A stretch of DNA of 64,000 nucleotides from a virus, in IMG/VR virus record IMGVR_UViG_3300037095_000059. The stretch is one strand, 5' to 3'. How positions within the stretch are numbered: position 1 is the first letter of the stretch; the number at the start of each line of letters is the position of its first letter. The notes below the pieces were generated by a model. That model was given only the letters and a program-made list of their open reading frames with translations. It was not told the origin of the DNA and ran no database searches. The position numbers and the translations under genes were made by a program. Shown here in pieces: positions 2,956-63,925 of this stretch.

Positions 2956-3311
2956 AGCGCATAATCCTGTTTCTCACTTTACTGTTGGCTCCTGCGCTGT
3001 ACGCGCAGACGGTTAAGCCTGCACTACCAACCACGGCGACGGACAATGCTGCTATCAAGCCAGCACTACCGACTATTACAGTACCTCCGGCAAGTTTGCT
3101 GCATTCTGACAACCTCGTCGATTTTTCTACTATTGCGTCGTTTGTTGTTCCGTTGTGCGGGTGGCAGGGTCGCGAGCGAGACGATGGCCAGTGCGAGATT
3201 ACAATAACTGCTCCACCTGATTACGAAAACTTCAAATGCACAGTCCATCAACATAAGCAGGGTGAACTGTACGTCATCACCTGCACATGGAAACCGAAGG
3301 CCAAGCCATGA
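2952..3311 (+). CDS. small secreted or lipoprotein-like protein
   Basis: N-terminal signal peptide MKRIILFLTLLLAPALYAQT. Cys-containing mature part. Confidence 0.5.
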   Translation: MKRIILFLTLLLAPALYAQTVKPALPTTATDNAAIKPALPTITVPPASLLHSDNLVDFSTIASFVVPLCGWQGRERDDGQCEITITAPPDYENFKCTVHQHKQGELYVITCTWKPKAKP

Positions 3312-12190: not shown

Positions 12191-12832
12191 TTATTCTTCT
12201 AGTCTGAGCTTCTTCATTTCTTTCGGGTCCTTGTCTGGCATGTTTCCCTCCCCCTTGTATGAGGGAGTATACACCCTGTCCGGTGTTCCGGTATTGGTCC
12301 AGGCGTGTGTTTGTCCCGCGTATTTATCTGCCGCATCTCCGCTAGAAAAGACTCCAAGATGTTCTTTGGTTTTGACGTAGTGTTTCTTGGCCTCCTCGTA
12401 CAAAGCGTCGTTAGCCTCCTTGTCTTTTTCGTCCGGTTTCTTTCCGGAGGAGGTCAAGAACTTACCGTCGGCTATCTGCGGGATCAGGGCGTACCTCGGG
12501 GCGTGGTCGTAATCTTCTTCCGGCCACAGTTCTCCCTTTTCATCGAGGGGGATGGTTGCTGAATAAATACTGCTATAGGAGCCATCCTCGTTCCGAATTC
12601 CAGGACGGTGGTTGACATCAATATTTCCGGACTGAACCATGCCGGGAACAGGCGTTCCTTGAAGCGGCCCCACGTCGTAAACAGGAGGGGGAACCGGCTG
12701 CGGGTTTGGTTTGGTTGTTCCGGGGGTCGGGACTCCGGAGTCCATCACATACCCAGCCGGAAGAGCCGCGTCTAATACATACCCCGGGGGAGGGGTTGGT
12801 TGTCCGGATAATGGACTTGCTGGGCTACCCAT
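12191..12832 (-). CDS. hypothetical protein (Pro-rich N-terminus)
   Basis: 213-aa ORF, the last minus-strand gene. Its start overlaps the stop of the giant ORF. Motif copy 12802 is read as SPLSGQ. Confidence 0.5.
   Translation of the reverse strand: MGSPASPLSGQPTPPPGYVLDAALPAGYVMDSGVPTPGTTKPNPQPVPPPVYDVGPLQGTPVPGMVQSGNIDVNHRPGIRNEDGSYSSIYSATIPLDEKGELWPEEDYDHAPRYALIPQIADGKFLTSSGKKPDEKDKEANDALYEEAKKHYVKTKEHLGVFSSGDAADKYAGQTHAWTNTGTPDRVYTPSYKGEGNMPDKDPKEMKKLRLEE
12802..12816. repeat. 15-bp motif copy, F: gtccggataatggac
   Basis: Inside ORF 12191..12832. Read as SPLSGQ. Confidence 0.9.
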
Positions 12833-18800: not shown

Positions 18801-21800
18801 GGCATTAGCTCTTGGGGTATCAGTAGGATGAGAGAACTTCGACACAATAAGGTCTCCATCCAGAGCGATTCCGGTCTTTCCGTCCGGGCTCATAAAGGTT
18901 TTCATTCCTTTATACTCTTCTGGAGAGTAGACAGAAAGCTGCTGATCCGCTCCGGAGGACTCGTGCGCTTTCTTGACTTGGGAAATAGCAGAGTGGAACT
19001 TCTCCGCCGACGTTGGCACTATGCCATAGTCACGGAAAACTTTGACAGGTTCGAAGGATTTGACTACGTTTTGGGCTCTGTACCCGGAGAAGCCTTTTTG
19101 CTGAAGCAGCTTTTCGAGGTTATATTCAATCGGATCGCCATTTTTGCGAGTTAATTTGCGGGCCTGGTCTACAAGACTGAGCGGGTCTTTCGCCCTGTCG
19201 TAGATTTTGTTGTAGTCAAGGTTCGCAAAATACTTCTTGGAGTTTCCCTGGACAGCGGGTTCTCTGTAGGATTCTTCTCCGAAGTACGTTCCTGGAACCT
19301 GTAAACGATCCCGTTCGGCCCCGCGCACACCTGTTCCTGCCAACTCCGGGTTGGTTTCCGTGAAGTCTGGTTTTCTGCTCCAATGGTAGACGCGGCGAAG
19401 GTCCTTGTTTTCGTCCAGTTCCCGGACGCGGGAAGCTAGACCTTGCTGTTTTCCTTTAGTAGGCTCAAATCGAACTTCAGCCTGAGTGCCCTCAGATTCT
19501 GCTGCTTTGGTAGCTTCTTCGTGGGTTGGGAAAGAATCTAGGAGATGGCCTTCCCCGTCGTAGACGTACCATTCTCCTTCAGCACCTTGGCCAGCCCCGC
19601 CTTCCCCTCCTTCTTCCAGGCGTCGTACACTTCCAGCGCCCGTTCCTTGCTCGGCCAACCCACTTGCTCTTGCTTCTGCTGCTTGTCTTTCGGCATAAAT
19701 GTCCTCCACGTGTTGTCTTGCAATTTCGTTGATGCGGGCAAATTTCTCCCGCGCTTGGGGTCCGTGCTTGGCTTCAAGTTCCTTGAAATACTCATCTAGG
19801 AAATTGATTCTCTCTGTTTTTGATGCGCCCGTGTCCACGCCCGCCTGATATTTAGCAGCGGTCTCGGCCACACGAACAACCGGGTTTTGGTCATAATCCA
19901 GCGAATCAAAATATGAATGAGTCACTGTTGGTATTATACCATGTAAACGGTCCCAGGGGGAACCCGGTTCCACTTTAATTTCTCCGCTTGGAAGCCTTGT
20001 GGCCCCGTCTAGGAGGTTGTATACCTCCCCGTTTTGGGAGAGCCATCTTTGCTCGGCGTGTTGAGCTTCTTCTTGTGCAACTAGAATTGAAAACTCAGGA
20101 TTCTCCCCCGGGGTTTTGAGGACAGATGTAGGTCCGGCGAGTTGACGGGCCTTGGAAATCAACTGTCCGATTGAACTCTCTGGATTGAAACGACTTAGGA
20201 GGATGTCCGCTTCCCTCGGAGAGTAGTTTACGCCCGTGCCCGGAGCTTGAGCAATCGTTTGAAAGTCGCCGTAATCTTCTGGACTGAGCCAAACAACAGG
20301 CCGACCATCTGAGCCTACACGCACTTCTCCCGAAGAGGTAGTAGCAACGGACTTGGTTCCTGCTCTCGGCGGGGCTTCGTTGTCGGCTAGAGGGGTTCCC
20401 AGCGGGGCCGGTATGGGCTGGTACTCTCCACCACCTTGGGCTTCAACCAAAACGTTATGTAGTACCCGCGCCTTTTCCGGGTCGGTTTCTGTCGCTATAC
20501 GGGTTTGGCATTCGGCGAGGCGCTCGGTATTGAAGGCTTTATCCTCTTTGGACAAACCGAGAACTGGGTGTGCTTTTCGGAGACCTAGCAGGTCGAAGGC
20601 TGTGTTGTACTTGTTGACAGCGTCCTGCTCAGCGACCGCGTGGGCGGCCTCCCTGTCCTTGTTGACTCTCTCTATTGCCAACCAGCGGTCGGACAGCCTG
20701 GGAACGTCTGTGGAGCCTAGCAGGGGGTTAAACAACTCGCCCGCCGAGCGCAAAGCGTGCGGGGCCCCCAAAGCTCCCATAGCCCCGGAGGCGAACATTT
20801 CTGTTCCATATTCCCAAGCGTGATCGGCGTCCCCTTCTTTCAGGGCGTCGAAGAACCGGGGCGACATCTGAGCCGCTGTTTCCAACTGTTGGTAGGTGAA
20901 TCCCCAGTTCATCACAGTGTTCGCCGTGTCGGCGGCCTTGGTCAGGGCCCCAAAAGACACATCGGGCGCTGCTTTGTGCAGAATCTGGAAGGCTCCTCTT
21001 TGGAGAAGGTTTCCTCCCAGAAGGTCCTTGGTCACGTCCAGTTTTTTATCGGACAGTATGGCAGTTGCTTTTTTCCAATTGTCTACGTTGTACCCGGCGT
21101 CACGAACCGCGTCAGCCAGGGGGAGGAAACCGGACTTGGCTTTGGCTACCGTATCGCCCGTATCCGACAGAGCCTTCAGTTCGTCGGTGGAAAACCCGGG
21201 CATCTTTGTGTTCGCCGTGGCGATAGCAGACCTTTCCGCTTCGGAAAGTGTTCCTTCCTTTAGGGCAGTCCTCTGTGCTTCGCTCAAGCCTACTTCAGAC
21301 AGGTTCTTCTGAAGTTCTTCCGAGGCTAGTTCTGCGTCCCTGTTGATGGGGAAGGTTAGAGCCCGGGCTCGTTCCAACAAACCCAGGTCGTGTCCGCCCG
21401 CTTTCAGGGCACCAGAGATGACCGGCTCAATATCGGGCATACTCTTGGCGGTCTTCAGCGCGATTTTTGACGCACTTATGGCGTCGGCGATCTGAGCGGC
21501 GGTAAATTCCCCAGACTCTTTGAGCGCAGTTTCGCCCGCTCCGGCGATAAATCCTCCGGAGCCGAAAGTTGCGGCAGCTAGAGCCAGCGAAAGTGGACTC
21601 GTGAGACCCGCCGCGATGTGCTCCACACCGCGCCCAAACCCGCCCATTCCCAAATCTTCGGGAAGACCAAAGACAGAGGAGTCGAGCAGGGGGGTGTTCG
21701 CCCAATCCCAAGCGCGAGAGTACCAGCTTTGACTTGGGTCTTGGTACAAGTGCTGAGGAGGAGTGGCGGGGCCAACAGATTGTTGTCCATTACCCGGACT

Positions 21801-21956
21801 AGAAGCGGAAGAACCCCCAAATAATAGGCCAAACGCAGAAGACCCAGAACCCCCAACAGCCGGGGCCGCTGCGCCAACGGCGGCCTCTCCTGTCGAAGGA
21901 GTCTGGGTTTCTTTGTTTTCCGAAGAGAAAAGCAGGGAGTAAGCTGAATCGGGCAT
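12825..21956 (-). CDS. giant 3043-aa multidomain virion or ejection ('polyvalent'-type) protein candidate
   Basis: One uninterrupted 9132-nt ORF at the distal end of the structural block. Strings LLHLEELQSDWHQKGR and RMIRYAAENGYDGISWTPG. Hydrophobic segments near the C-terminus. Four motif copies in frame, plus copy 12802 in the 8-nt overlap with the next ORF. Confidence 0.6.
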   Translation of the reverse strand: MPDSAYSLLFSSENKETQTPSTGEAAVGAAAPAVGGSGSSAFGLLFGGSSASSPGNGQQSVGPATPPQHLYQDPSQSWYSRAWDWANTPLLDSSVFGLPEDLGMGGFGRGVEHIAAGLTSPLSLALAAATFGSGGFIAGAGETALKESGEFTAAQIADAISASKIALKTAKSMPDIEPVISGALKAGGHDLGLLERARALTFPINRDAELASEELQKNLSEVGLSEAQRTALKEGTLSEAERSAIATANTKMPGFSTDELKALSDTGDTVAKAKSGFLPLADAVRDAGYNVDNWKKATAILSDKKLDVTKDLLGGNLLQRGAFQILHKAAPDVSFGALTKAADTANTVMNWGFTYQQLETAAQMSPRFFDALKEGDADHAWEYGTEMFASGAMGALGAPHALRSAGELFNPLLGSTDVPRLSDRWLAIERVNKDREAAHAVAEQDAVNKYNTAFDLLGLRKAHPVLGLSKEDKAFNTERLAECQTRIATETDPEKARVLHNVLVEAQGGGEYQPIPAPLGTPLADNEAPPRAGTKSVATTSSGEVRVGSDGRPVVWLSPEDYGDFQTIAQAPGTGVNYSPREADILLSRFNPESSIGQLISKARQLAGPTSVLKTPGENPEFSILVAQEEAQHAEQRWLSQNGEVYNLLDGATRLPSGEIKVEPGSPWDRLHGIIPTVTHSYFDSLDYDQNPVVRVAETAAKYQAGVDTGASKTERINFLDEYFKELEAKHGPQAREKFARINEIARQHVEDIYAERQAAEARASGLAEQGTGAGSVRRLEEGGEGGAGQGAEGEWYVYDGEGHLLDSFPTHEEATKAAESEGTQAEVRFEPTKGKQQGLASRVRELDENKDLRRVYHWSRKPDFTETNPELAGTGVRGAERDRLQVPGTYFGEESYREPAVQGNSKKYFANLDYNKIYDRAKDPLSLVDQARKLTRKNGDPIEYNLEKLLQQKGFSGYRAQNVVKSFEPVKVFRDYGIVPTSAEKFHSAISQVKKAHESSGADQQLSVYSPEEYKGMKTFMSPDGKTGIALDGDLIVSKFSHPTDTPRANANLMRVAIENGGRRSDGFDTYLPAINAREGMKVVARLPWNDAYAPEGWNYDKMKQYNGGHPDVVFMAYDPTYKGPYEPGQGVRVDSYQGGEAVQKAALRGEPISPLSGLASREKPAEWEDIKSHLTPEEVQKHDTPEKQNLLTAAFNSMPDHEEWTAAIRAGKAGQLWYERSTRAFDALIDSGIPWLGKADKDKFLNFTAALSPVQPVQANLRMALNLWAKWDKAGRPQDVTWKDGKVASKNASLYRVLAGRGETQGVDLPARMGNAIHALQGEPLSGPKVSSFTKNLGKDSSRVTNDTWMAVFGDHDPNRINKPAVYDAMSAKVREAAKAEGVEPRQAQAAIWCFIKSLAELSGWGNDRWIPPQEIIKQGLLTPELVAQHSADFADMLKTNPEIRGVIKKLGGDLNALDTKLETYVPRKPSTGEAAGSSPELLNAAGRLEAARRDSRIASHLARKSGASLFDTEFGPDNGLFSKEKDNRAPVWYLKSNQLVDSRMQGPMPADTVLKMLENNGVKPDELKYTGLSDFLREKGSAPVRPEEVKDYLAANNLQVQEVTKQENTPPPDRISRQLYGRDYGGLSEDQREVVDSAVNRWDAGEKFDPAKFGTYTLPGAEPGSYRELLMTLPNYGQSKNVFDYNEDFRSAHWDEPNVVGHVRFNDRTGPNGEKLLHLEELQSDWHQKGRTQGYNLDPARIESLRKEASDLRERLKDPVTDEELANYFKPGNIVNSYGGKDKVISFHPADPNGKGWDRVWSVKVHAIDPETGELDPREYDRTHSTRPDAGDVHPELQARLNEISKETVHSGVPDAPFKKTDEWTGLFFKRMIRYAAENGYDGISWTPGVEHFNRWGSERFDWEKTEDGKWTVAGTYQHGGNAGGVDLEGEATRRGLLNKSGGQVKSQADLRAIVHRVLHIAGREKVDAVTKKLWDRMQTEPTGASMPRKEGFESYYDQITPQVANKLGKQFGAKVGETKIKVSDGSKTRIYEGPTLSTADLDKIASEAEGTQLEGQARAVAYEVRYSRIPFAEAVRDFGSEAYAEKIGGKLNIQKEVKTSAVPYFPITDSMRESVLHQGQPLFSRESPDNGHLPPNIDDMIQNNVFKDKPKEYRDLVMSVHRKAATTAPDPQMKSAMDFIRNEHDRSFEIGSTNDILQHYIDDYFQRTWDNSNPEGRVISSDAKNGKFATNVTMARRRVYDSTLTGLLKSPKQLKFDIVNNMARGRAEIIKAAANRQFIRSLRDDFSRGSDGRPAVVLAGSGRVVTGQDGEDPKTFISPDRVQKINIAQSNIDEMKKTGYFDRFLADGTIKDITPHVHPDNIGMAIDRLEKQALSKNAQYDEMGNNKLRTDLMYLKSMLANKDYSGLREFNGAQKPVYAWDPQDYVTLDHNAMRGWNFVTNDSAGHGILVDADIKAHPEFAQYLKNRLGLEESGIAKNPIGKALLGAGSAAKHVLLSLSPFHMVQIGLRGVMTGINPFTLHGPDLLDGAKIDPSNPHSETKLLAMVRQGYTTGTDFRGQQQMSEGLSTGGDALRRIPGIGNTIANSMNWYQDFLFKRYIPAMKATAGEHLFDQYRASHPEWSNDRVAKAAALHANESFGGINWRAMGRSTTTQDWGRLMLLAPDWLESEMRSGARLFNREEGNIGRKQVVMMTLGMWGIARVLNTLSTGSPHLEAPFGLAVKNKEGKEIIFGMRTLPTDLLHAATDPVGFIKGRLSPTIHAGQELLTQRDSFGRKLGPEDLWADVFHNMMPIPGQAIGQAVTGTGPQVGTVGQVWKAGGGTAQVYATPAQKMAAELAANHNEDGPIDKAQMDRHRRIMDLEDQVRSGETSWPELVKLAYNTDQLKESELKKIQLNLTKTKGMDSTMASLYTRASRLPAAEFFKLFDTMNNSEKTALIPLTQSVMKRYTAKAMKDMTPSERAKDPVLQRILNMMHPGGIPQASAAPAPVIPPAVQQEAAHLNAGVQQYLHTATHPITGHQVASNDGHNWVDRQTGEPING
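15551..15565. repeat. 15-bp motif copy, R: gtccattatccggac
   Basis: Inside the giant ORF. Read as SPDNGH. Confidence 0.9.
17390..17404. repeat. 15-bp motif copy, R: gtccattatccggac
   Basis: Inside the giant ORF. Read as GPDNGL. Confidence 0.9.
18479..18493. repeat. 15-bp motif copy, F: gtccggataatggac
   Basis: Inside the giant ORF. Read as SPLSGL. Confidence 0.9.
21783..21797. repeat. 15-bp motif copy, R: gtccattacccggac
   Basis: Inside the giant ORF. Read as SPGNGQ. Confidence 0.9.
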
Positions 21957-58566: not shown

Positions 58567-58648
58567 TGGAGCGGAAGACGGGATTCGAACCCGCATGTCA
58601 AAGACAGTTGCTTGGAAGGCAACGGCTCTACCACTGAGCGACTTCCGC
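58567..58648 (-). tRNA. tRNA-Gly(UCC) with an extra variable-region hairpin
   Basis: Anticodon arm GUUGC-CUUCCAA-GCAAC. T-loop UUCGAAU. CCA encoded. 12-nt variable region UGUC-UUU-GACA. Confidence 0.75.
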
Positions 58649-58656
58649 ATGAAACT

Positions 58657-58730
58657 TGGTAGGCGACTGTGGAATCTAACCACAATGACACCCCTATCGA
58701 GGGTGCGTCCTAACATTGGACGAGTCGCCC
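58657..58730 (-). tRNA. tRNA-Ile(GAU)
   Basis: CACCC-UCGAUAG-GGGUG (C at position 33). CCA encoded. Confidence 0.7.
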
Positions 58731-58735
58731 GTAAA

Positions 58736-58811
58736 TGGTGTGGTCGGCAGGACTCGAACCTGCGGTGAACTGGGTGTAGGCCAGCCGATTTAGCCGCTAA
58801 TCTACGACCAC
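58736..58811 (-). tRNA. tRNA-Val(UAC)
   Basis: GCUGG-CCUACAC-CCAGU (C33). T-loop UUCGAGU. CCA encoded. Confidence 0.7.
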
Positions 58812-58816
58812 AGAAA

Positions 58817-58891
58817 TGGGGCGCGTAGCCGGAATCGAGCCGACATTCTGACCTTCGGAGGGTCGAGTTCTGTCCGTTGAACTATACGCGC
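58817..58891 (-). tRNA. tRNA-Arg(CCG)
   Basis: Anticodon loop CUCCGAA. Acceptor GCGCGUA/UACGCGC. CCA encoded. Confidence 0.75.
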
Positions 58892-58895
58892 AAAC

Positions 58896-58971
58896 TGGAA
58901 CCGACCACGGGACTTCAACCCGCATCAACTTCGTTAGGACCGAAGGGCTCTGTGCATTGAGCTAAGTCGGC
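58896..58971 (-). tRNA. tRNA-Arg(CCU)
   Basis: CUUCG-GUCCUAA-CGAAG. CCA encoded. Confidence 0.75.
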
Positions 58972-58975
58972 GAAA

Positions 58976-59050
58976 TGGAAACCCCATCCGGAGTCAAACC
59001 GGAATCTAACGAATAGAAGCCGTTGCTCTCTTCCCTTGAGCTATGGGGTC
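58976..59050 (-). tRNA. tRNA-Arg(UCU)
   Basis: AACGG-CUUCUAU-UCGUU. CCA encoded. Confidence 0.7.
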
Positions 59051-59056
59051 AAAATT

Positions 59057-59132
59057 TGGTGCCTCGCCAGGGAATTGAACCCTGTCCAATCGGCTTAAAA
59101 GGCCGTTATGCCAGCCATCACACTCACGAGGC
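59057..59132 (-). tRNA. tRNA-Lys(UUU)
   Basis: CGGC-CUUUUAA-GCCG. T-loop UUCAAUU. CCA encoded. Confidence 0.7.
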
Positions 59133-59180
59133 AACGTTTGTCGTCCTCGGATTTTCGACTTGTCATAACGTCCTCCAAAA

Positions 59181-59257
59181 TGGTGGGTCGCCAGGAACTC
59201 GAATCCTGCTCTGTCGGGTAAGAACCGACTGCTTCAAACCATCAAAGCTTGCAACCC
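59181..59257 (-). tRNA. tRNA-Lys(CUU)
   Basis: GUCGG-UUCUUAC-CCGAC. T-loop UUCGAGU. CCA encoded. Confidence 0.8.
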
Positions 59258-59258
59258 G

Positions 59259-59352
59259 TGGTAGGCGACCAGGGGGTCGAACCCTGCCGTTGCGCTATTC
59301 GAGGCGCTCTCCCGGGGATATAAAGCCCAGCCGCACACCGATGCTATCGCCC
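59259..59352 (-). tRNA. class II (long variable arm) tRNA-like gene with an enlarged anticodon loop; identity unresolved
   Basis: Good acceptor, T arm (CAGGG-UUCGACC-CCCUG) and variable arm (GCGC..GCGC). The anticodon stem closes an 8-9 nt loop CUUUAUAU(C). Confidence 0.5.
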
Positions 59353-59718
59353 AAAACTTTTGTCCATTAACCGGACAATATCCTTCTTCAACTGTGCAAC
59401 CTTCGCGGGCGGCATGTACAACTCGCCCTTCTTGACCAAGGCTATTCCTCCCTTTTTCACCGTGCCGCCTTTGTGAAAAGTAGCGGGAGACGCTTTGCTA
59501 AAATTGGGAGTCGGCAGGCTCGGGGTGTAGCTGGGGCCCGGGGCTTGCCTTGTATTCGCTTGTAGATCGTCTGTTGTTGCTGCGCGAGCAGCGGCGTTCT
59601 TGGCTTCAGCGGCCTGCATAGCAGAGCCCACGGCCCCGACGGCGGACCCTACTTTCTGCTTAGTGGTCTGCGGTGTTTTGGAGTCCGGTTTGTCGGTGCC
59701 TACCATTGCGTTTGCCAC
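59344..59718 (-). CDS. hypothetical protein embedded in the tRNA array
   Basis: 124-aa ORF with an A/T/K-rich N-terminus. C-terminus VRLMDKSFGR is read through motif copy 59362. The stop lies inside the adjacent tRNA-like gene. Confidence 0.4.
   Translation of the reverse strand: MANAMVGTDKPDSKTPQTTKQKVGSAVGAVGSAMQAAEAKNAAARAATTDDLQANTRQAPGPSYTPSLPTPNFSKASPATFHKGGTVKKGGIALVKKGELYMPPAKVAQLKKDIVRLMDKSFGR
59362..59376. repeat. 15-bp motif copy, R: gtccattaaccggac
   Basis: Near the C-terminus of 59344..59718 (VRLMD), 10 nt from a tRNA-like gene. Confidence 0.9.
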
Positions 59719-59738
59719 GTATTCTCCTTGTGTTGTCT

Positions 59739-59812
59739 TGGTGCCGCACGAGCTAATCGAAAGCTAACTCCGAAGTCCTTATGAGAGACTCGTCCAACCT
59801 TTGGTGCGCGGC
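59739..59812 (-). tRNA. tRNA-Met(CAU)-type (Met, fMet or Ile2 not distinguished); reduced D arm
   Basis: AGUCU-CUCAUAA-GGACU. D arm CCAA-AGG-UUGG. CCA encoded. Confidence 0.6.
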
Positions 59813-59858
59813 TTACGCAAACTGCGTACATTTGTACTCAAAACGAGTACATTCAAAA

Positions 59859-59933
59859 TGGCAGGAGATGTAGGATTTTAACCTACAAGTTCCGTTTTGG
59901 AGACGGACAGTTTGACATTGAGCTTAATCTCCC
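59859..59933 (-). tRNA. tRNA-Trp(CCA)
   Basis: UCCGU-CUCCAAA-ACGGA. CCA encoded. Confidence 0.75.
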
Positions 59934-59940
59934 GTAAAAC

Positions 59941-60015
59941 TGGTGCCCGGTAGAGGAGTCTAACCTCTGTCTCGAAGTTCGTAGCTTCGTGTCTTATACG
60001 TTATACGAACCGGAC
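59941..60015 (-). tRNA. tRNA-Arg(ACG)
   Basis: CGAAG-CUACGAA-CUUCG. CCA encoded. Confidence 0.75.
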
Positions 60016-60086
60016 TCAGCGCGAATCGAATCGAACGATTTCCACGAGCATCCGAGGCTCGGAGGCGACCACTACCCCACGCACTG
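60016..60086 (-). tRNA. tRNA-Pro(CGG)
   Basis: C1-G72 acceptor pair. CGAGC-CUCGGAU-GCUCG. T-loop UUCGAUU. No CCA encoded. Confidence 0.7.
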
Positions 60087-60093
60087 CTTAATA

Positions 60094-60169
60094 TGGTCAG
60101 CGGGCCGGGCTCCGCTTCCGGGACACGTGCTTCCGGAGCACGGAGGTTACTAGGCTACACTACCCACTG
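60094..60169 (-). tRNA. tRNA-Pro(CGG)-like, atypical T-loop
   Basis: C1-G72. CGUGC-UCCGGAA-GCACG (C33). T-loop AGCGGAG. CCA encoded. Confidence 0.5.
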
Positions 60170-60175
60170 ATAAAT

Positions 60176-60249
60176 TGGTCTGGGAGGGGAATTATGCTAT
60201 CCCGACACAAGCTTCCAGAGCTTGGATGTTTCTTCTACACTACTCCCAG
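60176..60249 (-). tRNA. tRNA-Pro(UGG), atypical T-loop
   Basis: C1-G72. CAAGC-UCUGGAA-GCUUG (C33). T-loop AGCAUAA. CCA encoded. Confidence 0.55.
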
Positions 60250-60250
60250 G

Positions 60251-60327
60251 TGGTCAGGGCGGTGGGAAATCGAACCCACTCCACAAGTCTCCCAGACTTG
60301 GATGCACAACCTCTACACTACACCCTG
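60251..60327 (-). tRNA. tRNA-Pro(GGG)
   Basis: C1-G72. CAAGU-CUGGGAG-ACUUG. CCA encoded. Confidence 0.7.
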
Positions 60328-60335
60328 ATAAAACA

Positions 60336-60413
60336 TGGTGCGGATTCAGCGAATCGAACGCTGTTCTTTCGCTCTTCAGGCGAACGCTAAATCACCAGAC
60401 TAGCTCAATCCGC
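60336..60413 (-). tRNA. tRNA-Phe(GAA)
   Basis: UUCGC-CUGAAGA-GCGAA. T arm CAGCG-UUCGAUU-CGCUG. CCA encoded. Confidence 0.8.
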
Positions 60414-60505
60414 AAAACTGTGCGTGGTCTCTCCCCGCCGTCACTCCACTCAGCCCCAGGCGATCAACGGGAGACTGCTGCCGCAGGTGTCGCGGTTCTC
60501 AGCTT

Positions 60506-60569
60506 TGGTGGACCAGGAGGGGCTTGATTCCTCGCGCAGACGCTTGCATCCATCTGAAAGTACTGGCCC
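60506..60569 (-). ncRNA. 64-nt tRNA-like element lacking a D arm (CCA-ended)
   Basis: Acceptor GGGCCAG/CUGGUCC, T-arm-like GAGGA-AUCAAGC-CCCUC, central CAGAUG-GAUGCAAG-CGUCUG hairpin, ACCA end. Confidence 0.35.
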
Positions 60570-60581
60570 ATTGTTAAACCA

Positions 60582-60806
60582 CTACCAAATATCCCATGCC
60601 ACAGTCTTTTTCACAGCAGGCATTTCTTTCTCCTGCGCGACTGCTGCCGTTGCAGCACGTCGATACTTGCGATTCCTGATCTTTGCCCAGGATTTACGCC
60701 CCGGCCATGCTCCACCATAAGCGCCAGGATAACCACAGAGTTTGCGCCACGCCTCACGAGTCGCTTCCTGTATCTTCCAAGGCATCGTGTTAATCGTTCG
60801 GGACAC
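60582..60806 (-). CDS. small basic W/R-rich protein embedded in the tRNA array
   Basis: 74-aa ORF. GTG start 7 nt after GAGGAG. Confidence 0.4.
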   Translation of the reverse strand: MSRTINTMPWKIQEATREAWRKLCGYPGAYGGAWPGRKSWAKIRNRKYRRAATAAVAQEKEMPAVKKTVAWDIW

Positions 60807-60823
60807 AACTTACTCCTCAAACT

Positions 60824-60879
60824 TGGTGGAGCCTGTTGTCAGCCACCGGATCGCGCCCGGCCCCATGATGGTTTACATT
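60824..60879 (-). ncRNA. CCA-ended hairpin or minihelix (tRNA remnant?)
   Basis: GGGGCC...GGCUCC-ACCA acceptor-like pairing enclosing CCGG-GCGCGAU-CCGG. No full cloverleaf. Confidence 0.3.
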
Positions 60880-60954
60880 TGGTGGAAAAGAGGAGAATCG
60901 AACTCCTACCTACTGGGTGCAGACCAGTCGTGCTCCCATTACCACTACTTCCCC
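60880..60954 (-). tRNA. tRNA-Ala(UGC)
   Basis: G3.U70 wobble present. ACUGG-UCUGCAC-CCAGU (C33). T-loop UUCGAUU. CCA encoded. Confidence 0.75.
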
Positions 60955-60991
60955 ACATTTCAAACTTACGCCGAGGTCCTACCTTAGATGA

Positions 60992-61129
60992 TGGTGCGGA
61001 ACTCACCGCATATTCCAGGGAGAGTCGAACTCCCGTTTCTCGGCGCTTCTCGCCAGACGCTTTACCCAAAGCTACTAGGTGGTTTTACCCGGGCCTAGTC
61101 CGGACTCGAACCGGATTCTTCTGGCTGCT
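60992..61129 (-). ncRNA. composite of tRNA-like fragments (two T arms, one D arm, CCA-ended hairpin); no intact cloverleaf found
   Basis: UCCGG-UUCGAGU-CCGGA and GGGAG-UUCGACU-CUCCC T arms, GCUU-UGGGUA-AAGC D arm, 3' GCGG-UGAGUU-CCGC-ACCA. Confidence 0.35.
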
Positions 61130-61205
61130 TGGAGGGAAGGGGACGAGTTGAACGTCCTAGAGAGTGGATTCACAGACCACCGCCGCACCGTTTGGCTTCC
61201 GACCC
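61130..61205 (-). tRNA. tRNA-His(GUG)-like (two acceptor-stem mismatches)
   Basis: GUGGU-CUGUGAA-UCCAC. T arm GGACG-UUCAACU-CGUCC. CCA encoded. Confidence 0.55.
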
Positions 61206-61313
61206 AAAATTTTCCGAGCTTTAGGCTGATCTGCTGGCCAGCTAAAGGGCTAGGCCCACGATCAACTTTTCACTGCACCCTATTTCTAGGGGGTACCCGG
61301 TGTAGGACTTGTT

Positions 61314-61328
61314 GTCCATTACCTGGAC
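61314..61328. repeat. 15-bp motif copy, R: gtccattacctggac
   Basis: Spacer in the tRNA array, between the His and Thr blocks. Confidence 0.9.
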
Positions 61329-61384
61329 GAATCTTGAAGCAAGGTTTACTCTGAAACCCGGCAGAAAAGTCAGACCACTTCGTT

Positions 61385-61412
61385 TGGTAGAACCAGGCAG
61401 GTGTCGCCTGTG
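61385..61412 (-). ncRNA. T-arm/acceptor-like minihelix ending in CCA, immediately 3' of tRNA-Thr(UGU)
   Basis: CAGGC-GACACCU-GCCUG followed by GUUCUA-CCA. There is no room for a 5' half. Confidence 0.3.
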
Positions 61413-61487
61413 TGGAGCGCCCGGACAGATTCAAACTGCCTTCTCCCGGGTACAGGCCGGGCGAATCTTCTGGTATTCTTCAGGCGC
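61413..61487 (-). tRNA. tRNA-Thr(UGU)
   Basis: CCCGG-CCUGUAC-CCGGG (C33). D arm GAAU/AUUC. CCA encoded. Confidence 0.75.
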
Positions 61488-61556
61488 AAATCTCAACTAA
61501 AGACATTGTACCACAGCAGTCTTCAGCTTGTCAACAACTATTTCAGAAAAACTTTG

Positions 61557-61630
61557 TGGAGCCGACGAGGGGAGTTCAACCCCTATTTCTGACGTACCAG
61601 GTCAGCGTTGTAGCGTTGAACCACATCGGC
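61557..61630 (-). tRNA. tRNA-Thr(GGU)
   Basis: CUGAC-CUGGUAC-GUCAG. CCA encoded. Confidence 0.8.
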
Positions 61631-61631
61631 T

Positions 61632-61705
61632 TGGAGCCCGGTCGGGGAATTCAACCCCGGTCTTCGCGGTACGAAGGCGAAAGTCTAGCACTGACCTAAC
61701 CAGGC
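61632..61705 (-). tRNA. tRNA-Thr(CGU)
   Basis: UCGCC-UUCGUAC-CGCGA (one stem mismatch). T arm CGGGG-UUGAAUU-CCCCG. CCA encoded. Confidence 0.7.
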
Positions 61706-61708
61706 GTT

Positions 61709-61723
61709 GTCCATTATCTGGAC
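61709..61723. repeat. 15-bp motif copy, R: gtccattatctggac
   Basis: 3 nt upstream (5') of tRNA-Thr(CGU). Confidence 0.9.
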
Positions 61724-61907
61724 GAAACATTGCCGCTTGAGGGCCGGATGCTTCCCCGGCTTTTACGAACCGCGTGGTAGGGCGGCCAACCTCGGAGTGC
61801 GCATCTCCTGCGGCAAACTAATCGCGCCGTTCCGACCTGCTTAGACCTTCCATAGAAGGCGAGGTTTGCAACCCTCGACAGGCACCTTTCTGGATACTGC
61901 GCGAACT
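61724..61907 (-). ncRNA. unassigned structured spacer S1 (~185 nt)
   Basis: Multiple hairpins: GAGG-GUUGCAAA-CCUC, CCUUC-UAUG-GAAGG, GCCGG-GGAAGCAU-CCGGC. Internal ...CCGCCCUACCA. No cloverleaf found. Confidence 0.35.
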
Positions 61908-61982
61908 TGGAGCGAAGGACCAGACTCGAACTGGCGTCTACGGACTGGCAATCCGAGGTACTAGCCGCTGTACGACCTTCGC
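61908..61982 (-). tRNA. tRNA-Gly(GCC)
   Basis: CGGA-UUGCCAG-UCCG. T arm GCCAG-UUCGAGU-CUGGU. CCA encoded. Confidence 0.8.
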
Positions 61983-61987
61983 AAAAA

Positions 61988-62062
61988 TGGCAGGGGGTAC
62001 TGGAATTGAACCAGTCTTCAGGGCTTCAAAGACCCTTACCTAAACCAATCGGTCAACCCCCT
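61988..62062 (-). tRNA. tRNA-Gln(UUG)
   Basis: AGGGU-CUUUGAA-GCCCU. CCA encoded. Confidence 0.75.
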
Positions 62063-62067
62063 AAACT

Positions 62068-62141
62068 TGGCTCGGGCAGATGGAATCCAACCACCGCCAT
62101 TCGGGTCAGAGCCGAATGTCCTAGCACTAAACGATGCCCGA
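62068..62141 (-). tRNA. tRNA-Gln(CUG)
   Basis: U1-A72. UUCGG-CUCUGAC-CCGAA. CCA encoded. Confidence 0.75.
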
Positions 62142-62149
62142 TTAAATTT

Positions 62150-62225
62150 TGGCTCACCCGGAGGGCCACGATCCCCCAACCTCTCGGTTAACAGCCGAGC
62201 GTTCTGCCAATTGAACTACAGGTGA
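62150..62225 (-). tRNA. tRNA-Asn(GUU)
   Basis: CUCGG-CUGUUAA-CCGAG. D arm GUUC/GAAC. CCA encoded. Confidence 0.8.
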
Positions 62226-62235
62226 ACATTAAACT

Positions 62236-62312
62236 TGGTAGGGTTGATGGAGCTTGCATCCATTAGGGCCTGCGTGAAGGGCAGGGTGCTCGACTACTTT
62301 GCATTCAACCCC
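62236..62312 (-). tRNA. tRNA-Glu(UUC)
   Basis: CCUGC-CCUUCAC-GCAGG (C33). T arm AUGGA-UGCAAGC-UCCAU. CCA encoded. Confidence 0.7.
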
Positions 62313-62404
62313 AAAACTAAAACGGATGGTGGCCCTACACTTCTTACGCCACTGTCGATGAGGCTTAACTTCCCCTCGTTGCCGAGTGTTGCATCCGTTT
62401 AACT
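62313..62404 (-). ncRNA. unassigned ~90-nt structured element S4 closed by an 8-bp helix
   Basis: AACGGAUG...CAUCCGUU closing stem. Internal CUCG-GCAA-CGAG hairpin and an internal GGGCCACCA. Confidence 0.35.
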
Positions 62405-62478
62405 TGGCGGCCTACCAGGGAGTCAAACCCTGATCGTGAGGATGAGGACCTCACATCCTGTCGTTAGAAGAGTAGGCC
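62405..62478 (-). tRNA. tRNA-Glu(CUC)
   Basis: UGAGG-UCCUCAU-CCUCA (C33). T arm CAGGG-UUUGACU-CCCUG. CCA encoded. Confidence 0.75.
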
Positions 62479-62752
62479 AAAACATGGCCGACTTACATCC
62501 CGAAGGAAAGCGGCAAAACTTTGCCGGTCTTTCCCGGCGGTCAGGAGTAGCACTAATCGAGCCTTCTTAACCACGCTCGGGTGGAACCATCAAGGTGAGG
62601 GGTTGCCCACGGTTTCCAAACCGTCTCGTTACTGGACTTCGCTGTGCTCACCACAGCCGCCCTATCCGAGTAGCGCGGAAGAAGGGTGCTCAATTAGCTC
62701 CTTGAGACGGAGGGGAGCCTGTACAAGCCTACCGGCGGGTACAACATCAAAA
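62479..62752 (-). ncRNA. unassigned structured spacer S2 (~270 nt)
   Basis: Dense hairpins: GCUGUG-GUGAG-CACAGC, ACGGUU-UGGA-AACCGU, CCGG-GAAAGA-CCGG, UCC-UUCG-GGA. Long-range CCCGCC/GGGCGG pairing. No ORF and no cloverleaf. Confidence 0.4.
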
Positions 62753-62831
62753 TGGCGCGAGCGAGGGGACTCGAACCCCCGAATAAATCCTCATGGACAG
62801 TGAGGTGCAGTTGCCGCTGTGCTACGCCCGC
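62753..62831 (-). tRNA. tRNA-Asp(GUC)
   Basis: CCUCA-CUGUCCA-UGAGG. T arm GGGGG-UUCGAGU-CCCCU. CCA encoded. Confidence 0.75.
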
Positions 62832-62992
62832 GTAAGATTGTACTCCAGATTATAAGAGATGAATTTTATCACATCTCCCGCTGCCGGGGTATTAAGTCCA
62901 TTGTCTGGATGAAGTTCGCAGTATTTGTCCCACGCAGTCTTGTGCGGACATGGTCTGCTGTAATAATTAGAAATACATTCTTCCAGATTCAT
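62822..62992 (-). CDS. small Cys-containing protein (56 aa) embedded in the tRNA array
   Basis: GAGGAAG RBS. MNLEECISNYYSRPCPHKTAWDKYCELHPDNGL... The degenerate motif 62896 is read as HPDNGL. The stop lies inside tRNA-Asp. Confidence 0.35.
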   Translation of the reverse strand: MNLEECISNYYSRPCPHKTAWDKYCELHPDNGLNTPAAGDVIKFISYNLEYNLTRA

Positions 62993-63004
62993 GCTTCCTC
63001 AAAT

Positions 63005-63081
63005 TGGTTCAGGGAGGGCGATTCGAACGCCGCTATTCATTCGAGCTTATGAGGCTGAATGCCACACCAACGGGCCCCTGT
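63005..63081 (-). tRNA. tRNA-Met(CAU)-type, atypical (A1.A72 mismatch, long anticodon stem)
   Basis: Anticodon loop CUCAUAA. T-loop UUCGAAU. CCA encoded. Confidence 0.55.
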
Positions 63082-63102
63082 ATAAACATTATACCACAAA
63101 AC

Positions 63103-63193
63103 TGGTGCAAGCAGAGGGATTCGAACCCCCAATGTCATCAAAGATAATCCAGATTTACAGTCTGGCGCACCCAACCGTATGTGCCTTACTTGC
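63103..63193 (-). tRNA. tRNA-Tyr(GUA), class II
   Basis: CCAGA-CUGUAAA-UCUGG. D arm GCAC/GUGC. Long variable arm. CCA encoded. Confidence 0.8.
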
Positions 63194-63194
63194 G

Positions 63195-63279
63195 TGGAGG
63201 AGAGCAGCCGAATCGAACGGCCATCCTTGCGGAGCCCCGGTTTTCAAGACCGGCTGTATCACCATCAACAGTGCTCTCC
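63195..63279 (-). tRNA. tRNA-Ser(UGA)
   Basis: CCGGU-CUUGAAA-ACCGG. Long variable arm. CCA encoded. Confidence 0.8.
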
Positions 63280-63525
63280 AAAACTTACCGCAATCCCTGC
63301 GGCCTCACTTTCTGAGCGGTTCAGAGGAAGTGTGTTCAGTAACCCCGAATCCAGGGTGAGCCTTACAGACCGCTAGCGGTACAACGTCAAAACTTAACTC
63401 CCCGACTTCTACGCGACACCTTGCTGAGCTTGTCAGGGCCAGCCGGGCTCGGGGAACCGGGTCATATTCCAACCCTTTGACAAGGGAATAAGGAACAGGG
63501 GACGACCGGCGGCACACGTCAAACA
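63280..63525 (-). ncRNA. unassigned structured spacer S3 (~245 nt)
   Basis: GC-rich helices (CCGG..CCGG, GAGCCCGGCU, ACCGCUAGCGGU palindrome, CUCAC../..GUGAG). No ORF and no cloverleaf. Confidence 0.35.
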
Positions 63526-63612
63526 TGGCGGAAGATGAAGTATCGAAACCTTGTCCATTATCTGGACAGCACCGGGTTCGAGCCGGTTTGGGCACCTTGC
63601 CCGCCATCTTCC
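63526..63612 (-). tRNA. tRNA-Ser(CGA) whose variable arm is a copy of the 15-bp motif
   Basis: ACCGG-CUCGAAC-CCGGU. Variable arm GUCC-AGAUAAU-GGAC (motif copy 63553). Weak T stem. CCA encoded. Confidence 0.65.
63553..63567. repeat. 15-bp motif copy, R: gtccattatctggac
   Basis: Forms the variable arm of tRNA-Ser(CGA). Confidence 0.9.
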
Positions 63613-63617
63613 TAAAA

Positions 63618-63703
63618 TGGCGGAAAGTACAGAACTCGAATCTGAATCCTTGCGGATCGCACCGCTTTCCAAGCGGGCCCAGGCCCTGCCCGGTCTACTT
63701 TCC
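63618..63703 (-). tRNA. tRNA-Ser(GGA)
   Basis: CCGC-UUGGAAA-GCGG. Variable arm GAUCC-GCAA-GGAUU. CCA encoded. Confidence 0.75.
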
Positions 63704-63749
63704 ATTAAGGAAAAACTACCTACTTTTTCTTGCACAAAACTTGACAAAA

Positions 63750-63837
63750 TGGCGGAAGAGGGGAGACTCGAACTCCCAATACCCGAAGGTATCGCTGCCT
63801 TAGCAGAGCAGTGCAGTACCAATTGTGCCACTCTTCC
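63750..63837 (-). tRNA. tRNA-Ser(GCU)
   Basis: CUGCU-CUGCUAA-GGCAG. Variable arm AUACC-UUCG-GGUAU. T arm GGGAG-UUCGAGU-CUCCC. CCA encoded. Confidence 0.8.
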
Positions 63838-63842
63838 AAACT

Positions 63843-63925
63843 TGGTGCCGATGAGGGGGATCGAACCCCTACCCCGAAGGACTAGGTTTTGAATCTAGCG
63901 TGGCTCCCAATTACACCACATCGGC
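63843..63925 (-). tRNA. tRNA-Leu(CAA)
   Basis: CUAG-(A)UUCAAAA(C)-CUAG. Variable arm with a UUCG loop. CCA encoded. Confidence 0.7.

Follow-up and report, generated by a model that had tools for sequence, protein, structure and literature searches.

The stretch examined here, 64,000 nucleotides of viral DNA (IMG/VR record IMGVR_UViG_3300037095_000059; hereafter the window), carries between positions 58567 and 63925 of its minus strand a dense array of 36 transfer RNA (tRNA) genes. Together with four further tRNA genes and a transfer-messenger RNA (tmRNA) gene beyond the window end, they form a phage-borne, near-complete tRNA module which, judging from its sequence, probably serves to free phage translation from the tRNA pool of the host. 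The array is a phage tRNA gene cluster, a well-known kind of phage feature; what sets it apart is its density and completeness in a genome of about 110 kb, a gene order shared across unrelated phages, a high share of non-canonical tRNA cores, a long-arm tRNA with a UAU anticodon and a permuted tmRNA. Its notable part is the exchange of the G19:C56 pair of the tRNA elbow for other base pairs.

Detection of the tRNA genes

At default settings ARAGORN reports 24 tRNA genes in the whole window, all on the minus strand and all between 58567 and 63925. The Rfam tRNA model, scanned over the whole window, gives 21 matches at or above its gathering score, among them Arg(ACG) and Trp(CCA), which default ARAGORN misses; in E-value mode, run on the array region, His(GUG) joins them at 31.8 bits and Ser(UGA) is hit by the tRNA-Sec model. 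Over both scans 22 tRNA matches reach the gathering score. Relaxing ARAGORN adds Ser(GGA) (option -ps) and then Thr(UGU), the first Met-type CAU gene and Ser(CGA) (option -ps80); at the loosest setting about nine false positives also turn up on the plus strand, so that it proves little by itself. No standard tool found Glu(UUC), Pro(UGG), the first Pro(CGG), the second Met-type gene or the class II gene, of which our own cloverleaf scanner backed three, in addition to Thr(UGU).

Relatives of the array were sampled as 17 viral contigs (IMG/VR viral contigs; contigs and loci carry L numbers below), fetched with a conserved 210-amino-acid gene immediately downstream of the array (alignment A4) as anchor. 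The HNH protein encoded beside the array was dropped as an anchor, since promiscuous HNH genes brought in unrelated loci. A covariance model of type I tRNAs (R1) was built from 79 type I tRNAs taken exclusively from related contigs and searched, with filters off, against 24 kb of the window. All 33 hits that it gives on the minus strand at E<0.01 fall within 58571-63925; neither the plus strand nor 18.5 kb of neighbouring phage genes (40000-58500) yields a hit at E<1. The genes missed by the standard tools score 34 bits (Pro(UGG)), 26 bits (Pro(CGG) no. 1), 22.9 bits (Glu(UUC)), 17.4 bits (class II gene) and 15.5 bits (Met-type no. 2). R1 is weak on Ser(GGA), Ser(CGA) and Met-type no. 1, for which ARAGORN finds genes with the same anticodon at the matching array position in relatives. 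CCA is encoded by 35 of the 36 genes, the exception being Pro(CGG) no. 2 (60016-60086); in Met-type no. 1 it is present only when the gene is read one base earlier. By ARAGORN, Rfam and R1 alike, tandem cloverleaf genes thus occur here beyond chance, as a phage tRNA cluster. The features are as follows, in the direction of transcription.

63843-63925, minus strand: tRNA-Leu(CAA); ARAGORN default, Rfam 48.6 bits, R1 37.4 bits
63750-63837, minus strand: tRNA-Ser(GCU), class II; ARAGORN default, Rfam 53.9 bits
63618-63703, minus strand: tRNA-Ser(GGA), class II; ARAGORN -ps, R1 only 10.9 bits, same anticodon at this position in L026, L038 and L040
63526-63612, minus strand: tRNA-Ser(CGA), class II; ARAGORN -ps80, near-identical orthologues in L039 and L040
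63195-63279, minus strand: tRNA-Ser(UGA); ARAGORN default, drawn with 8-bp acceptor and 4-bp T stem; Rfam tRNA-Sec 43.2 bits (below the gathering score of 47), R1 27 bits
63103-63193, minus strand: tRNA-Tyr(GUA), class II; ARAGORN default, Rfam 52.6 bits
63005-63081, minus strand: Met-type tRNA(CAU) no. 1; ARAGORN -ps80 at 63009-63080, orthologues in L024, L036, L034 and L038, R1 on the T arm only
62753-62831, minus strand: tRNA-Asp(GUC), enlarged variable loop; ARAGORN default, Rfam 47.7 bits
62405-62478, minus strand: tRNA-Glu(CUC), A19:U56 elbow; ARAGORN default, R1 56.5 bits
62236-62312, minus strand: tRNA-Glu(UUC), irregular; own cloverleaf scan 45.5, R1 22.9 bits (E 2.6e-5), Glu(UUC) at this position in L024, L026, L033 and L036
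62150-62225, minus strand: tRNA-Asn(GUU), A54:U58, T loop ATCGTGG; ARAGORN default, Rfam 56.1 bits
62068-62141, minus strand: tRNA-Gln(CUG), C19:G56 elbow; ARAGORN default, Rfam 51.9 bits
61988-62062, minus strand: tRNA-Gln(UUG); ARAGORN default, Rfam 53.1 bits
61908-61982, minus strand: tRNA-Gly(GCC); ARAGORN default, Rfam 53.4 bits
61632-61705, minus strand: tRNA-Thr(CGU), C19:G56 elbow; ARAGORN default, Rfam 47.3 bits
61557-61630, minus strand: tRNA-Thr(GGU), C19:G56 elbow; ARAGORN default, Rfam 55.1 bits
61505-61534, minus strand: putative sigma-70-type promoter within the array, a consensus match only; TTGACA-18-TACAAT, TG before the -10, 11/12 consensus
61413-61487, minus strand: tRNA-Thr(UGU), U56, T loop TTTGAAT; ARAGORN -ps80, own scan 46.5, R1 54.2 bits
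61130-61205, minus strand: tRNA-His(GUG); Rfam 31.8 bits, ARAGORN -ps80, R1 28.6 bits
61018-61074, minus strand: tRNA-like remnant, a 37th element; R1 23 bits over model positions 8-64, 92% identity to L024
60880-60954, minus strand: tRNA-Ala(UGC); ARAGORN default, Rfam 50.7 bits
60336-60413, minus strand: tRNA-Phe(GAA); ARAGORN default, Rfam 48.7 bits
60251-60327, minus strand: tRNA-Pro(GGG); ARAGORN default, Rfam 45.6 bits
60176-60249, minus strand: tRNA-Pro(UGG), irregular T loop AGCATAA; own scan 42.5, R1 34 bits (E 6e-9)
60094-60169, minus strand: tRNA-Pro(CGG) no. 1, irregular T loop AGCGGAG; own scan 37.5, R1 26 bits (E 2.5e-6)
60016-60086, minus strand: tRNA-Pro(CGG) no. 2, no CCA, abuts the next gene; ARAGORN default, R1 51.7 bits, 89% identity to L012 with compensatory stem changes
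59941-60015, minus strand: tRNA-Arg(ACG), U19:A56 elbow; Rfam 43.4 bits, ARAGORN -ps, R1 53.3 bits
59859-59933, minus strand: tRNA-Trp(CCA), U19:A56 elbow; Rfam 34.9 bits, ARAGORN -ps, R1 50.8 bits
59739-59812, minus strand: Met-type tRNA(CAU) no. 2, irregular; R1 15.5 bits (E 0.006), orthologues in L026, L037, L038 and L039, 9/16 predicted pairs compensatory
59259-59352, minus strand: class II tRNA with UAU anticodon; alignment A5, 9 orthologues
59181-59257, minus strand: tRNA-Lys(CUU); ARAGORN default, R1 49.7 bits
59057-59132, minus strand: tRNA-Lys(UUU); ARAGORN default, Rfam 43.1 bits
58976-59050, minus strand: tRNA-Arg(UCU), U56; ARAGORN default, Rfam 44 bits
58896-58971, minus strand: tRNA-Arg(CCU), C19:G56 elbow; ARAGORN default, Rfam 43.4 bits
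58817-58891, minus strand: tRNA-Arg(CCG), C54 T loop; ARAGORN default, Rfam 51.8 bits
58736-58811, minus strand: tRNA-Val(UAC); ARAGORN default, Rfam 60.3 bits
58657-58730, minus strand: tRNA-Ile(GAU), U19:A56 elbow; ARAGORN default, R1 56.2 bits
58567-58648, minus strand: tRNA-Gly(UCC), 12-nucleotide hairpin in the variable region; ARAGORN default, Rfam 62.1 bits
57904-58551, minus strand: HNH homing-type endonuclease gene just downstream of the array; phrog_2255, E 7.6e-24

A preliminary description of the window, made from its letters by manual folding, had listed 36 minus-strand tRNA genes nearly all with encoded CCA, and its anticodons, order and strand are borne out, as is the count of CCA ends, with support that is graded from gene to gene: 24 of the 36 folds are called by ARAGORN at default, and Rfam, relaxed ARAGORN and R1 supply the remainder. 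The isoacceptor blocks that it described are not strict: both genes for Gly, both of the Met type and Arg(ACG) stand apart from their isoacceptors. The class II gene to which it gave no anticodon is real, and the alignment of nine orthologues resolves it as a conserved long-arm tRNA with a UAU anticodon. As default tRNA finders detect only 24 of the 36 genes, arrays of this kind are probably undercounted.

Full extent of the array and its decoding capacity

The genes do lie at 58567-63925, the extent first given for the array, but the window end cuts through it. A look-up of the conserved downstream gene found a 110,535-bp JGI metagenome contig (L046; JGI 3300036787, Ga0334798_000076) with 99.97% identity to the window over 8.9 kb, which extends beyond the window end. 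Upstream of Leu(CAA), at 2590-3660 of this contig (about 64000-65000 in window numbering), it carries in order two TTGACA/TACAAT promoters, Leu(UAA), a Cys-like gene, a permuted tmRNA gene, Leu(GAG), Leu(CAG) and a small open reading frame (ORF), whose end forms the first 70 bases at the high-coordinate edge of the window. Both promoters at the array start are putative, being matches to the sigma-70-type consensus, and the Cys-like gene scores 23 bits with R1. The permuted tmRNA (3056-3242 of the contig, about 350 bases past the window end) matches Rfam RF04321 at 94.4 bits against a gathering score of 47, and ARAGORN gives its tag reading frame as AVPFELPMAA*. None of the related arrays has a tmRNA. 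The complete array hence comprises 40 tRNA genes and a tmRNA in about 6.3 kb, the 36 genes in the window and the four upstream covering all 20 amino acids. By standard wobble rules applied to the anticodon list, the full set should read every sense codon but CUA.

The genes lie on one strand, and 20 of the 35 junctions between them measure 0-10 nucleotides. The spacers are U-rich, with TTT within 8 nucleotides after 23 of the 36 3' ends (6% background). The array would be transcribed as a few polycistronic precursors from the sigma-70-type sites at its start and at 61534-61505. Host RNase P would generate the 5' ends, and the 3' ends would come from RNase E-type cleavage in the short U-rich spacers and subsequent trimming, with the CCA-adding enzyme unneeded save for Pro(CGG) no. 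2. Phage translation would thereby become largely independent of the host tRNA pool, which may be depleted or cleaved in infection through host shut-off or tRNA-targeting defences; phage tRNAs can neutralise tRNA-cleaving defences (PMC10264068, PMC11464382, PMC11555353). The early proposal that the phage substantially replaces host decoding is in keeping with the anticodon set, which covers 20 amino acids and all sense codons but one.

The classical explanation for phage tRNAs, cited in the paper on the Tunturi phages (PMC11924767), is that they supplement codons commoner in the phage than in its host and so speed translation of late structural genes. This explanation draws on the modest GC content of third codon positions (GC3, 0.58), which makes A/U-ending codons frequent, and on AUA, which accounts for 21% of the Ile codons and has a dedicated tRNA(UAU). 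AUA is usually rare in GC-rich bacteria. Two features make such compensation doubtful as an account of the whole array, although possible: the set is essentially complete, down to readers of G/C-ending codons that any GC-rich host should have abundantly, and the phage uses all 61 codons with weak bias, so that no small set of demanding codons stands out. Taken together, completeness and weak codon bias favour wholesale supply over a top-up for rare codons.

Several observations weigh against this account of the module. CUA has no cognate gene in the phage, and with a single gene each for Val and Ala the set falls short of strict self-sufficiency. Within the window the array holds a single promoter-like site, and the array region yields two such sites where shuffled sequences predict 3.1. 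Three to five genes may be non-functional, namely Glu(UUC), Pro(UGG) and Pro(CGG) no. 1 and perhaps both Met-type genes, whose loops are irregular. Finally, the tRNA(UAU) has a second subtype in four relatives (L024, L026, L037 and L038; GCCGGAA) with an acceptor unlike that of Ile(GAU) and a discriminator that is A, U or C, which leaves Ile identity insecure.

Exchange of the 19:56 elbow pair

The G19:C56 elbow pair is near-universal in tRNAs. In the array and its relatives (the family), the T loops often read TTG, TTA or TTT in place of TTC. When T-loop position 56 was tallied against the D loop for 199 distinct family tRNAs called by ARAGORN at its default threshold, C56 was missing from 62 (31%), and from 9 of 28 window tRNAs; the canonical bacterial-type core, with G18-G19 in the D loop and U54-U55-C56 in the T loop, is not retained throughout. 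In place of G19:C56, the variants have C:G, U:A or A:U. In all 62 tRNAs lacking C56 the D loop holds a G followed by the complement of N56; permuting D loops among these tRNAs in 10,000 trials gave 28 on average and never more than 40. Conversely, GG is present in the D loop of 132 of the 137 tRNAs with C56 but in only 5 of the 62 others. This complete covariation shows that the variant tRNAs are folded and selected and are not pseudogenes. Within the window, C19:G56 is seen in Gln(CUG), Thr(CGU), Thr(GGU) and Arg(CCU), U19:A56 in Arg(ACG), Trp and Ile, and A19:U56 in Glu(CUC). Arg(UCU) has U56 and a D loop, AAGGGAA, that holds both GG and GA, so that N19 is ambiguous, and Thr(UGU) likewise has U56, as read from its T loop. 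The elbow state varies among positional orthologues in 31 of 46 tRNA types, implying at least 48 changes.

A second tertiary pair is also affected. In 14 family tRNAs, the window Asn and 13 in L024, L026, L033, L036 and L038, the T54:A58 reverse-Hoogsteen pair is reversed to A54:U58 (loop ATCGT..), and C54 is found in eight further family tRNAs; neither A54:U58 nor C54 occurs in any of 40 tRNAs of the jumbo phage Tunturi 5.

The elbow is canonical in 22/22 tRNAs of Vibrio phage Luma, 28/28 of Mycobacterium phage Cane17 and 39/41 of Tunturi 5, so that 31% of non-G19:C56 elbows in the family compare with 0/22, 0/28 and 2/41. An elbow-pattern scan of viral contigs (spacing 24-34) nevertheless found C19:G56 tRNAs at lower frequency elsewhere, for example 4/22 and 1/20, and the idea that the swaps are a trait of this family only was rejected on that ground. 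The swap is enriched in the family of the window phage and is not unique to it. No description of an elbow-pair swap was found in the literature searched.

One possible reading is that the identity of the 19:56 pair is simply unconstrained in the family. A more speculative one, which we consider rather unlikely, is that the tRNAs have been selected to change the identity of G19:C56 and T54:A58 while keeping the pairing, and thereby evade some host factor that recognises tRNAs by their elbow or T loop. A defence nuclease or toxin, or a surveillance step that depends on modification, could hypothetically act in this way; to our knowledge, no defence system reads 19:56 or 54:58. If escape were the cause, it would open a new front of phage-host conflict on the tRNA beyond the anticodon loop, and any Watson-Crick pair at 19:56 would support translation. 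Whatever the cause, the family amounts to a natural mutagenesis series in which 19:56 is swapped to every Watson-Crick combination, 54:58 is sometimes reversed and AUA probably has a long-arm reader. Provided that the variant tRNAs work, they could define the elbow requirements of the ribosome, RNase P, EF-Tu and the synthetases and supply parts for orthogonal tRNA engineering, and they raise the question of whether some defence systems or toxins recognise the elbow.

Gene order and origin of the array

At least nine related viral contigs keep the gene order of the array: Leu(UAA), Cys, Leu(GAG/CAG/UAG), Leu(CAA), four Ser, Tyr, Met, Asp, two Glu, Asn, two Gln and Gly(GCC), followed by three Thr, His, Ala, Phe, three Pro, Arg(ACG), Trp, Met, the class II (UAU) gene, two Lys, three Arg, Val, Ile and Gly(UCC). 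Anticodon identity, like order, is kept across divergent relatives, and in four contigs that are more distant but share the neighbouring gene, that place is devoid of tRNAs. A significantly similar order is found in Tunturi 5, a jumbo myovirus that infects Tunturiibacter, whose proteins are unrelated and which has 41 ARAGORN-called tRNAs: the longest common subsequence is 17-24 genes, against 8-9 for shuffled orders (maximum 14), and the same test finds no such similarity for phages Luma and Cane17. The tRNA sequences themselves show no such likeness, the identity between tRNAs of the same anticodon being 0.64 for Tunturi 5 and 0.63 and 0.61 for the unrelated Luma and Cane17.

Because the order recurs in relatives and in the unrelated Tunturi 5, the array was in all likelihood inherited as a module, and piecemeal capture, which the preliminary description had already discounted, is ruled out. 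On this comparison the order is evidently old and has been inherited or moved as a block, with sequences diverged to saturation. The likeness to Tunturi 5 points to an ancestral tRNA module shared among phages that may have Acidobacteriota hosts in common. In Tunturi 5 (L041, PP885688 231315-255899) the tRNA genes are spread across 25 kb, yet the order is similar.

In-situ duplication with diversification of the anticodon, suggested at first from the adjacency of isoacceptors, is by contrast not shown by the sequences. Pairs of window tRNAs for the same amino acid have a mean identity of 0.62 (0.53-0.71), against 0.57 for pairs of different amino acids (standard deviation 0.05, maximum 0.69), and even the two Pro(CGG) copies share only 0.64. 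Recent in-situ duplication was accordingly rejected on these pairwise identities; either any duplication is ancient and saturated, or the likeness reflects shared identity elements only. Identity to the closest relative is mosaic at 75-98%, with Leu(CAA), Lys(CUU) and Arg(CCG) at about 98% and others at about 75%, which argues for cassette-level recombination between arrays. Replacement of the anticodon arm on an otherwise identical body is also seen between relatives, as in Pro(CGG) of L038 and Pro(GGG) of L037.

A long-arm tRNA with a UAU anticodon

The class II gene sits directly upstream of Lys(CUU) and is conserved in nine contigs. It has a 7-bp acceptor stem, one linker base, a 4-bp D stem with a loop of 3-4 nucleotides, a 5-bp anticodon stem, a 4-bp variable-arm stem and a 5-bp T stem. 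In the alignment of nine orthologues (A5), 100% of 224 cells are paired and 16 of 25 pairs show compensatory changes, including three of the four in the variable arm; none of 500 shuffles equalled this. The anticodon stem is extended by a mismatch layer around YTTATAR, and the TTATA core of the loop is invariant in 9/9 orthologues, which puts UAU in the anticodon position, flanked by U33 and a purine at 37. Besides the second subtype described above, there is one shared by the window, L033 and L036, in which the acceptor (GGGCGA-/-TCGCCT) and A73 are as in the Ile(GAU) of the window. A strict 46-bit pattern of this tRNA matches nine viral contigs and none of 185,579 species genomes, although so strict a search could overlook divergent cellular relatives. 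Ile(UAU) genes are present in other phage arrays too.

The gene invites comparison with the allo-tRNAs of Acidobacteria and soil metagenomes, which have a 12-bp acceptor branch of the 8/4 or 9/3 type and UAU as their commonest anticodon (Mukai et al. 2017, PMC5389517). Allo-tRNAs occur in bacterial genomes of Acidobacteria, Clostridia and Proteobacteria, and in soil and peat data they form polycistrons with other irregular tRNAs; (8/4) tRNA-Ser has been reported from phage tRNA clusters (PMC5389517). Compared by description, the phage tRNA likewise has a long variable arm, a D-stem tetraloop, a longer anticodon stem and a non-Ser UAU anticodon. These traits, all reported for acidobacterial allo-tRNA(UAU) (PMC5389517), could indicate a Ser- or Leu-accepting missense suppressor that reassigns AUA in phage genes, and the variable discriminator base among orthologues would suit such a role. 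Recoding is nonetheless highly improbable. Of the 77 ATA codons in nine orthologous terminase genes, 61% are aligned with Ile, followed by Val and Leu, and few with Ser, and ATT/ATC codons in the same genes align with Ile in 58%; codons that align so alike argue that AUA still means Ile and that a Ser/Leu suppressor role is unlikely, and recoding of AUA was rejected on this alignment of codons to residues. Furthermore, the acceptor/T arrangement is 7/5, neither 8/4 nor 9/3, and the pattern is absent from the species genomes scanned. Membership of the allo-tRNAs was itself rejected, as the 7/5 arrangement is fully paired in 9/9 orthologues and columns 8 and 86 cannot pair. The gene differs from them also in lying within a full decoding set and not beside toxin-antitoxin or transposon genes. 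The long-arm tRNA(UAU) is thus most likely, on present sequence evidence, an AUA-decoding Ile tRNA independent of lysidine modification. As to (8/4) tRNA-Ser, ARAGORN draws the Ser(UGA) of the window as 8/4, although 7/5 with one G-U pair is also possible.

Irregular genes, gaps and inserted elements

The D and T loops depart from the canonical form in Glu(UUC), Pro(UGG) and Pro(CGG) no. 1, the first of which combines C33, the T loop TGCAAGC and a D loop without GG; to judge from these loops all three may be decaying copies. Both Met-type genes are irregular, and either may be an initiator, an elongator or an Ile2 tRNA. Met-type no. 1 has an initiator-like A1xA72 mismatch, kept in L034 and L036, and an ACCA end when read from 63081. 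Met-type no. 2 has one linker base, a 4-bp D stem and a 3-nucleotide D loop, like the adjacent tRNA(UAU). The remnant at 61018-61074 retains D, anticodon-like and T arms and has no acceptor stem. The 12-nucleotide variable-region hairpin of Gly(UCC), class-II-like for a Gly tRNA, is kept in L026 and L033, with larger insertions in L038 and L039.

Gaps of 90-470 nucleotides without tRNA genes interrupt the array. Those at 63385-63525, 63280-63384, 62479-62752, 62313-62404, 61706-61907, 61206-61412 and 60955-61129 measure 90-274 nucleotides, and several of them have closing stems followed by GTTTT. The gap sequence at 63388-63525 is 98.5% identical to L024, against about 78% for the flanking tRNAs. 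The gaps match only the closest relative, save for a 15-bp motif and short partial matches in L026, L036, L038 and L039. Their folding z-scores are modest (+0.7 to -2.9), and none has an Rfam match as a structured RNA. The 15-bp motif, GTCC[AG]NNTA[AC]TGGAC with a 5-bp inverted repeat, occurs 37 times in the window on both strands (for example at 5249, 10178, 26128, 29718, 46178, 49547, 61709 and 63553), and a 17-mer version with three mismatches allowed gives 31 hits where 0.07 are expected. It is mostly co-oriented with genes and often intergenic, its flanks are not conserved, and it is also found in related contigs; a role as promoter, operator or RNA hairpin is conceivable. One exact copy of this genome-wide motif, GTCCAGATAATGGAC at 63551-63567, forms the variable arm of Ser(CGA), where the orthologues in L039 and L040 have a slightly different hairpin. 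Three small ORFs with ribosome-binding-like sequences lie inside the array, at 62822-62992 (56 amino acids), 60582-60806 (74 amino acids) and 59344-59718 (124 amino acids), and have no Pfam or PHROG match. Between the array and the conserved gene downstream of it sits the inserted HNH gene, which has no homologue at that place in L004, L010 or L012.

These irregularities bear on the view that the array is selfish, decaying cargo, a mobile cassette kept by homing endonucleases and recombination during co-infection while its genes drift into pseudogenes. The HNH gene abuts the array, endonuclease genes also lie within the arrays of relatives and the tRNA region of Tunturi 5, identity to the closest relative is mosaic, and the irregular tRNAs, the truncated remnant and the gaps conserved only in that relative would all fit. 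Against this, compensatory changes keep the stems, down to the tertiary 19:56 pair in 62/62 variant tRNAs, anticodon identity and order persist across divergent relatives, and CCA ends are retained in 35 of the 36 genes. Such retention argues for purifying selection on function and makes pure cargo improbable.

Comparison with known systems

Large tRNA clusters are found in Tunturi 5 (43 tRNAs reported, PMC11924767), Bixzunavirus, T5-like Vibrio phages and huge phages. Like the present array, they are close-spaced and on one strand of lytic-type genomes, serve most or all amino acids and are interspersed with small ORFs and homing endonuclease genes. A tmRNA within the cluster is common to the window phage and Cane17 (Bixzunavirus, about 30 tRNAs plus tmRNA). 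With Tunturi 5 the array significantly shares its gene order, whereas the tRNA sequences are no closer than to those of unrelated phages; the window phage has a genome of about 110 kb and a podovirus-type portal where Tunturi 5 is jumbo, and its array is denser, with 40 genes in 6.3 kb against about 25 kb. The array therefore adds the case of a mid-sized phage with an almost complete decoding set, one inherited as an ordered module common to unrelated soil phages.

Phage tRNAs with a part in anti-defence include the tRNA-Lys of T5 against PARIS (PMC11464382), a tRNA-Tyr against retron/PtuAB (PMC11555353) and anticodon-loop variants (PMC10264068). Both they and the tRNAs of this family are altered at otherwise conserved positions, the idea being that of nuclease-resistant replacements, but the known cases concern the anticodon loop or stem or the variable loop, and the family varies at 19:56 and 54:58. 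Bacterial tRNA array units of Mycobacterium plasmids and chromosomes, with 20-40 dense tRNA genes, are mobile and have been proposed to act in anti-defence (PMC6515697, PMC12803027); they are likewise dense and serve most amino acids, but reside on cellular replicons.

The phage and its relatives

The window derives from a soil-metagenome phage with a full genome of about 110 kb. It encodes the markers of a tailed phage, including a large terminase (phrog_38, E 1.7e-32), an SU10-type portal (PF23899) and a primase-helicase; the portal is of the podovirus type and the genome is not of jumbo size. By terminase the nearest cultured phage is Tunturiibacter phage Tunturi 3, at only 27% identity. 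Megablast of the array against cultured phages gave no match and sensitive blastn only generic similarity to single tRNAs. A scan for the exact Pro(CGG) pattern returned only one already known contig and one 1.2-kb locus, and scans of cellular genomes found no relative of the protein neighbouring the array. In the structural region an ORF of 3043 amino acids spans 12825-21956, its sole match being DUF7178 / phrog_3842.

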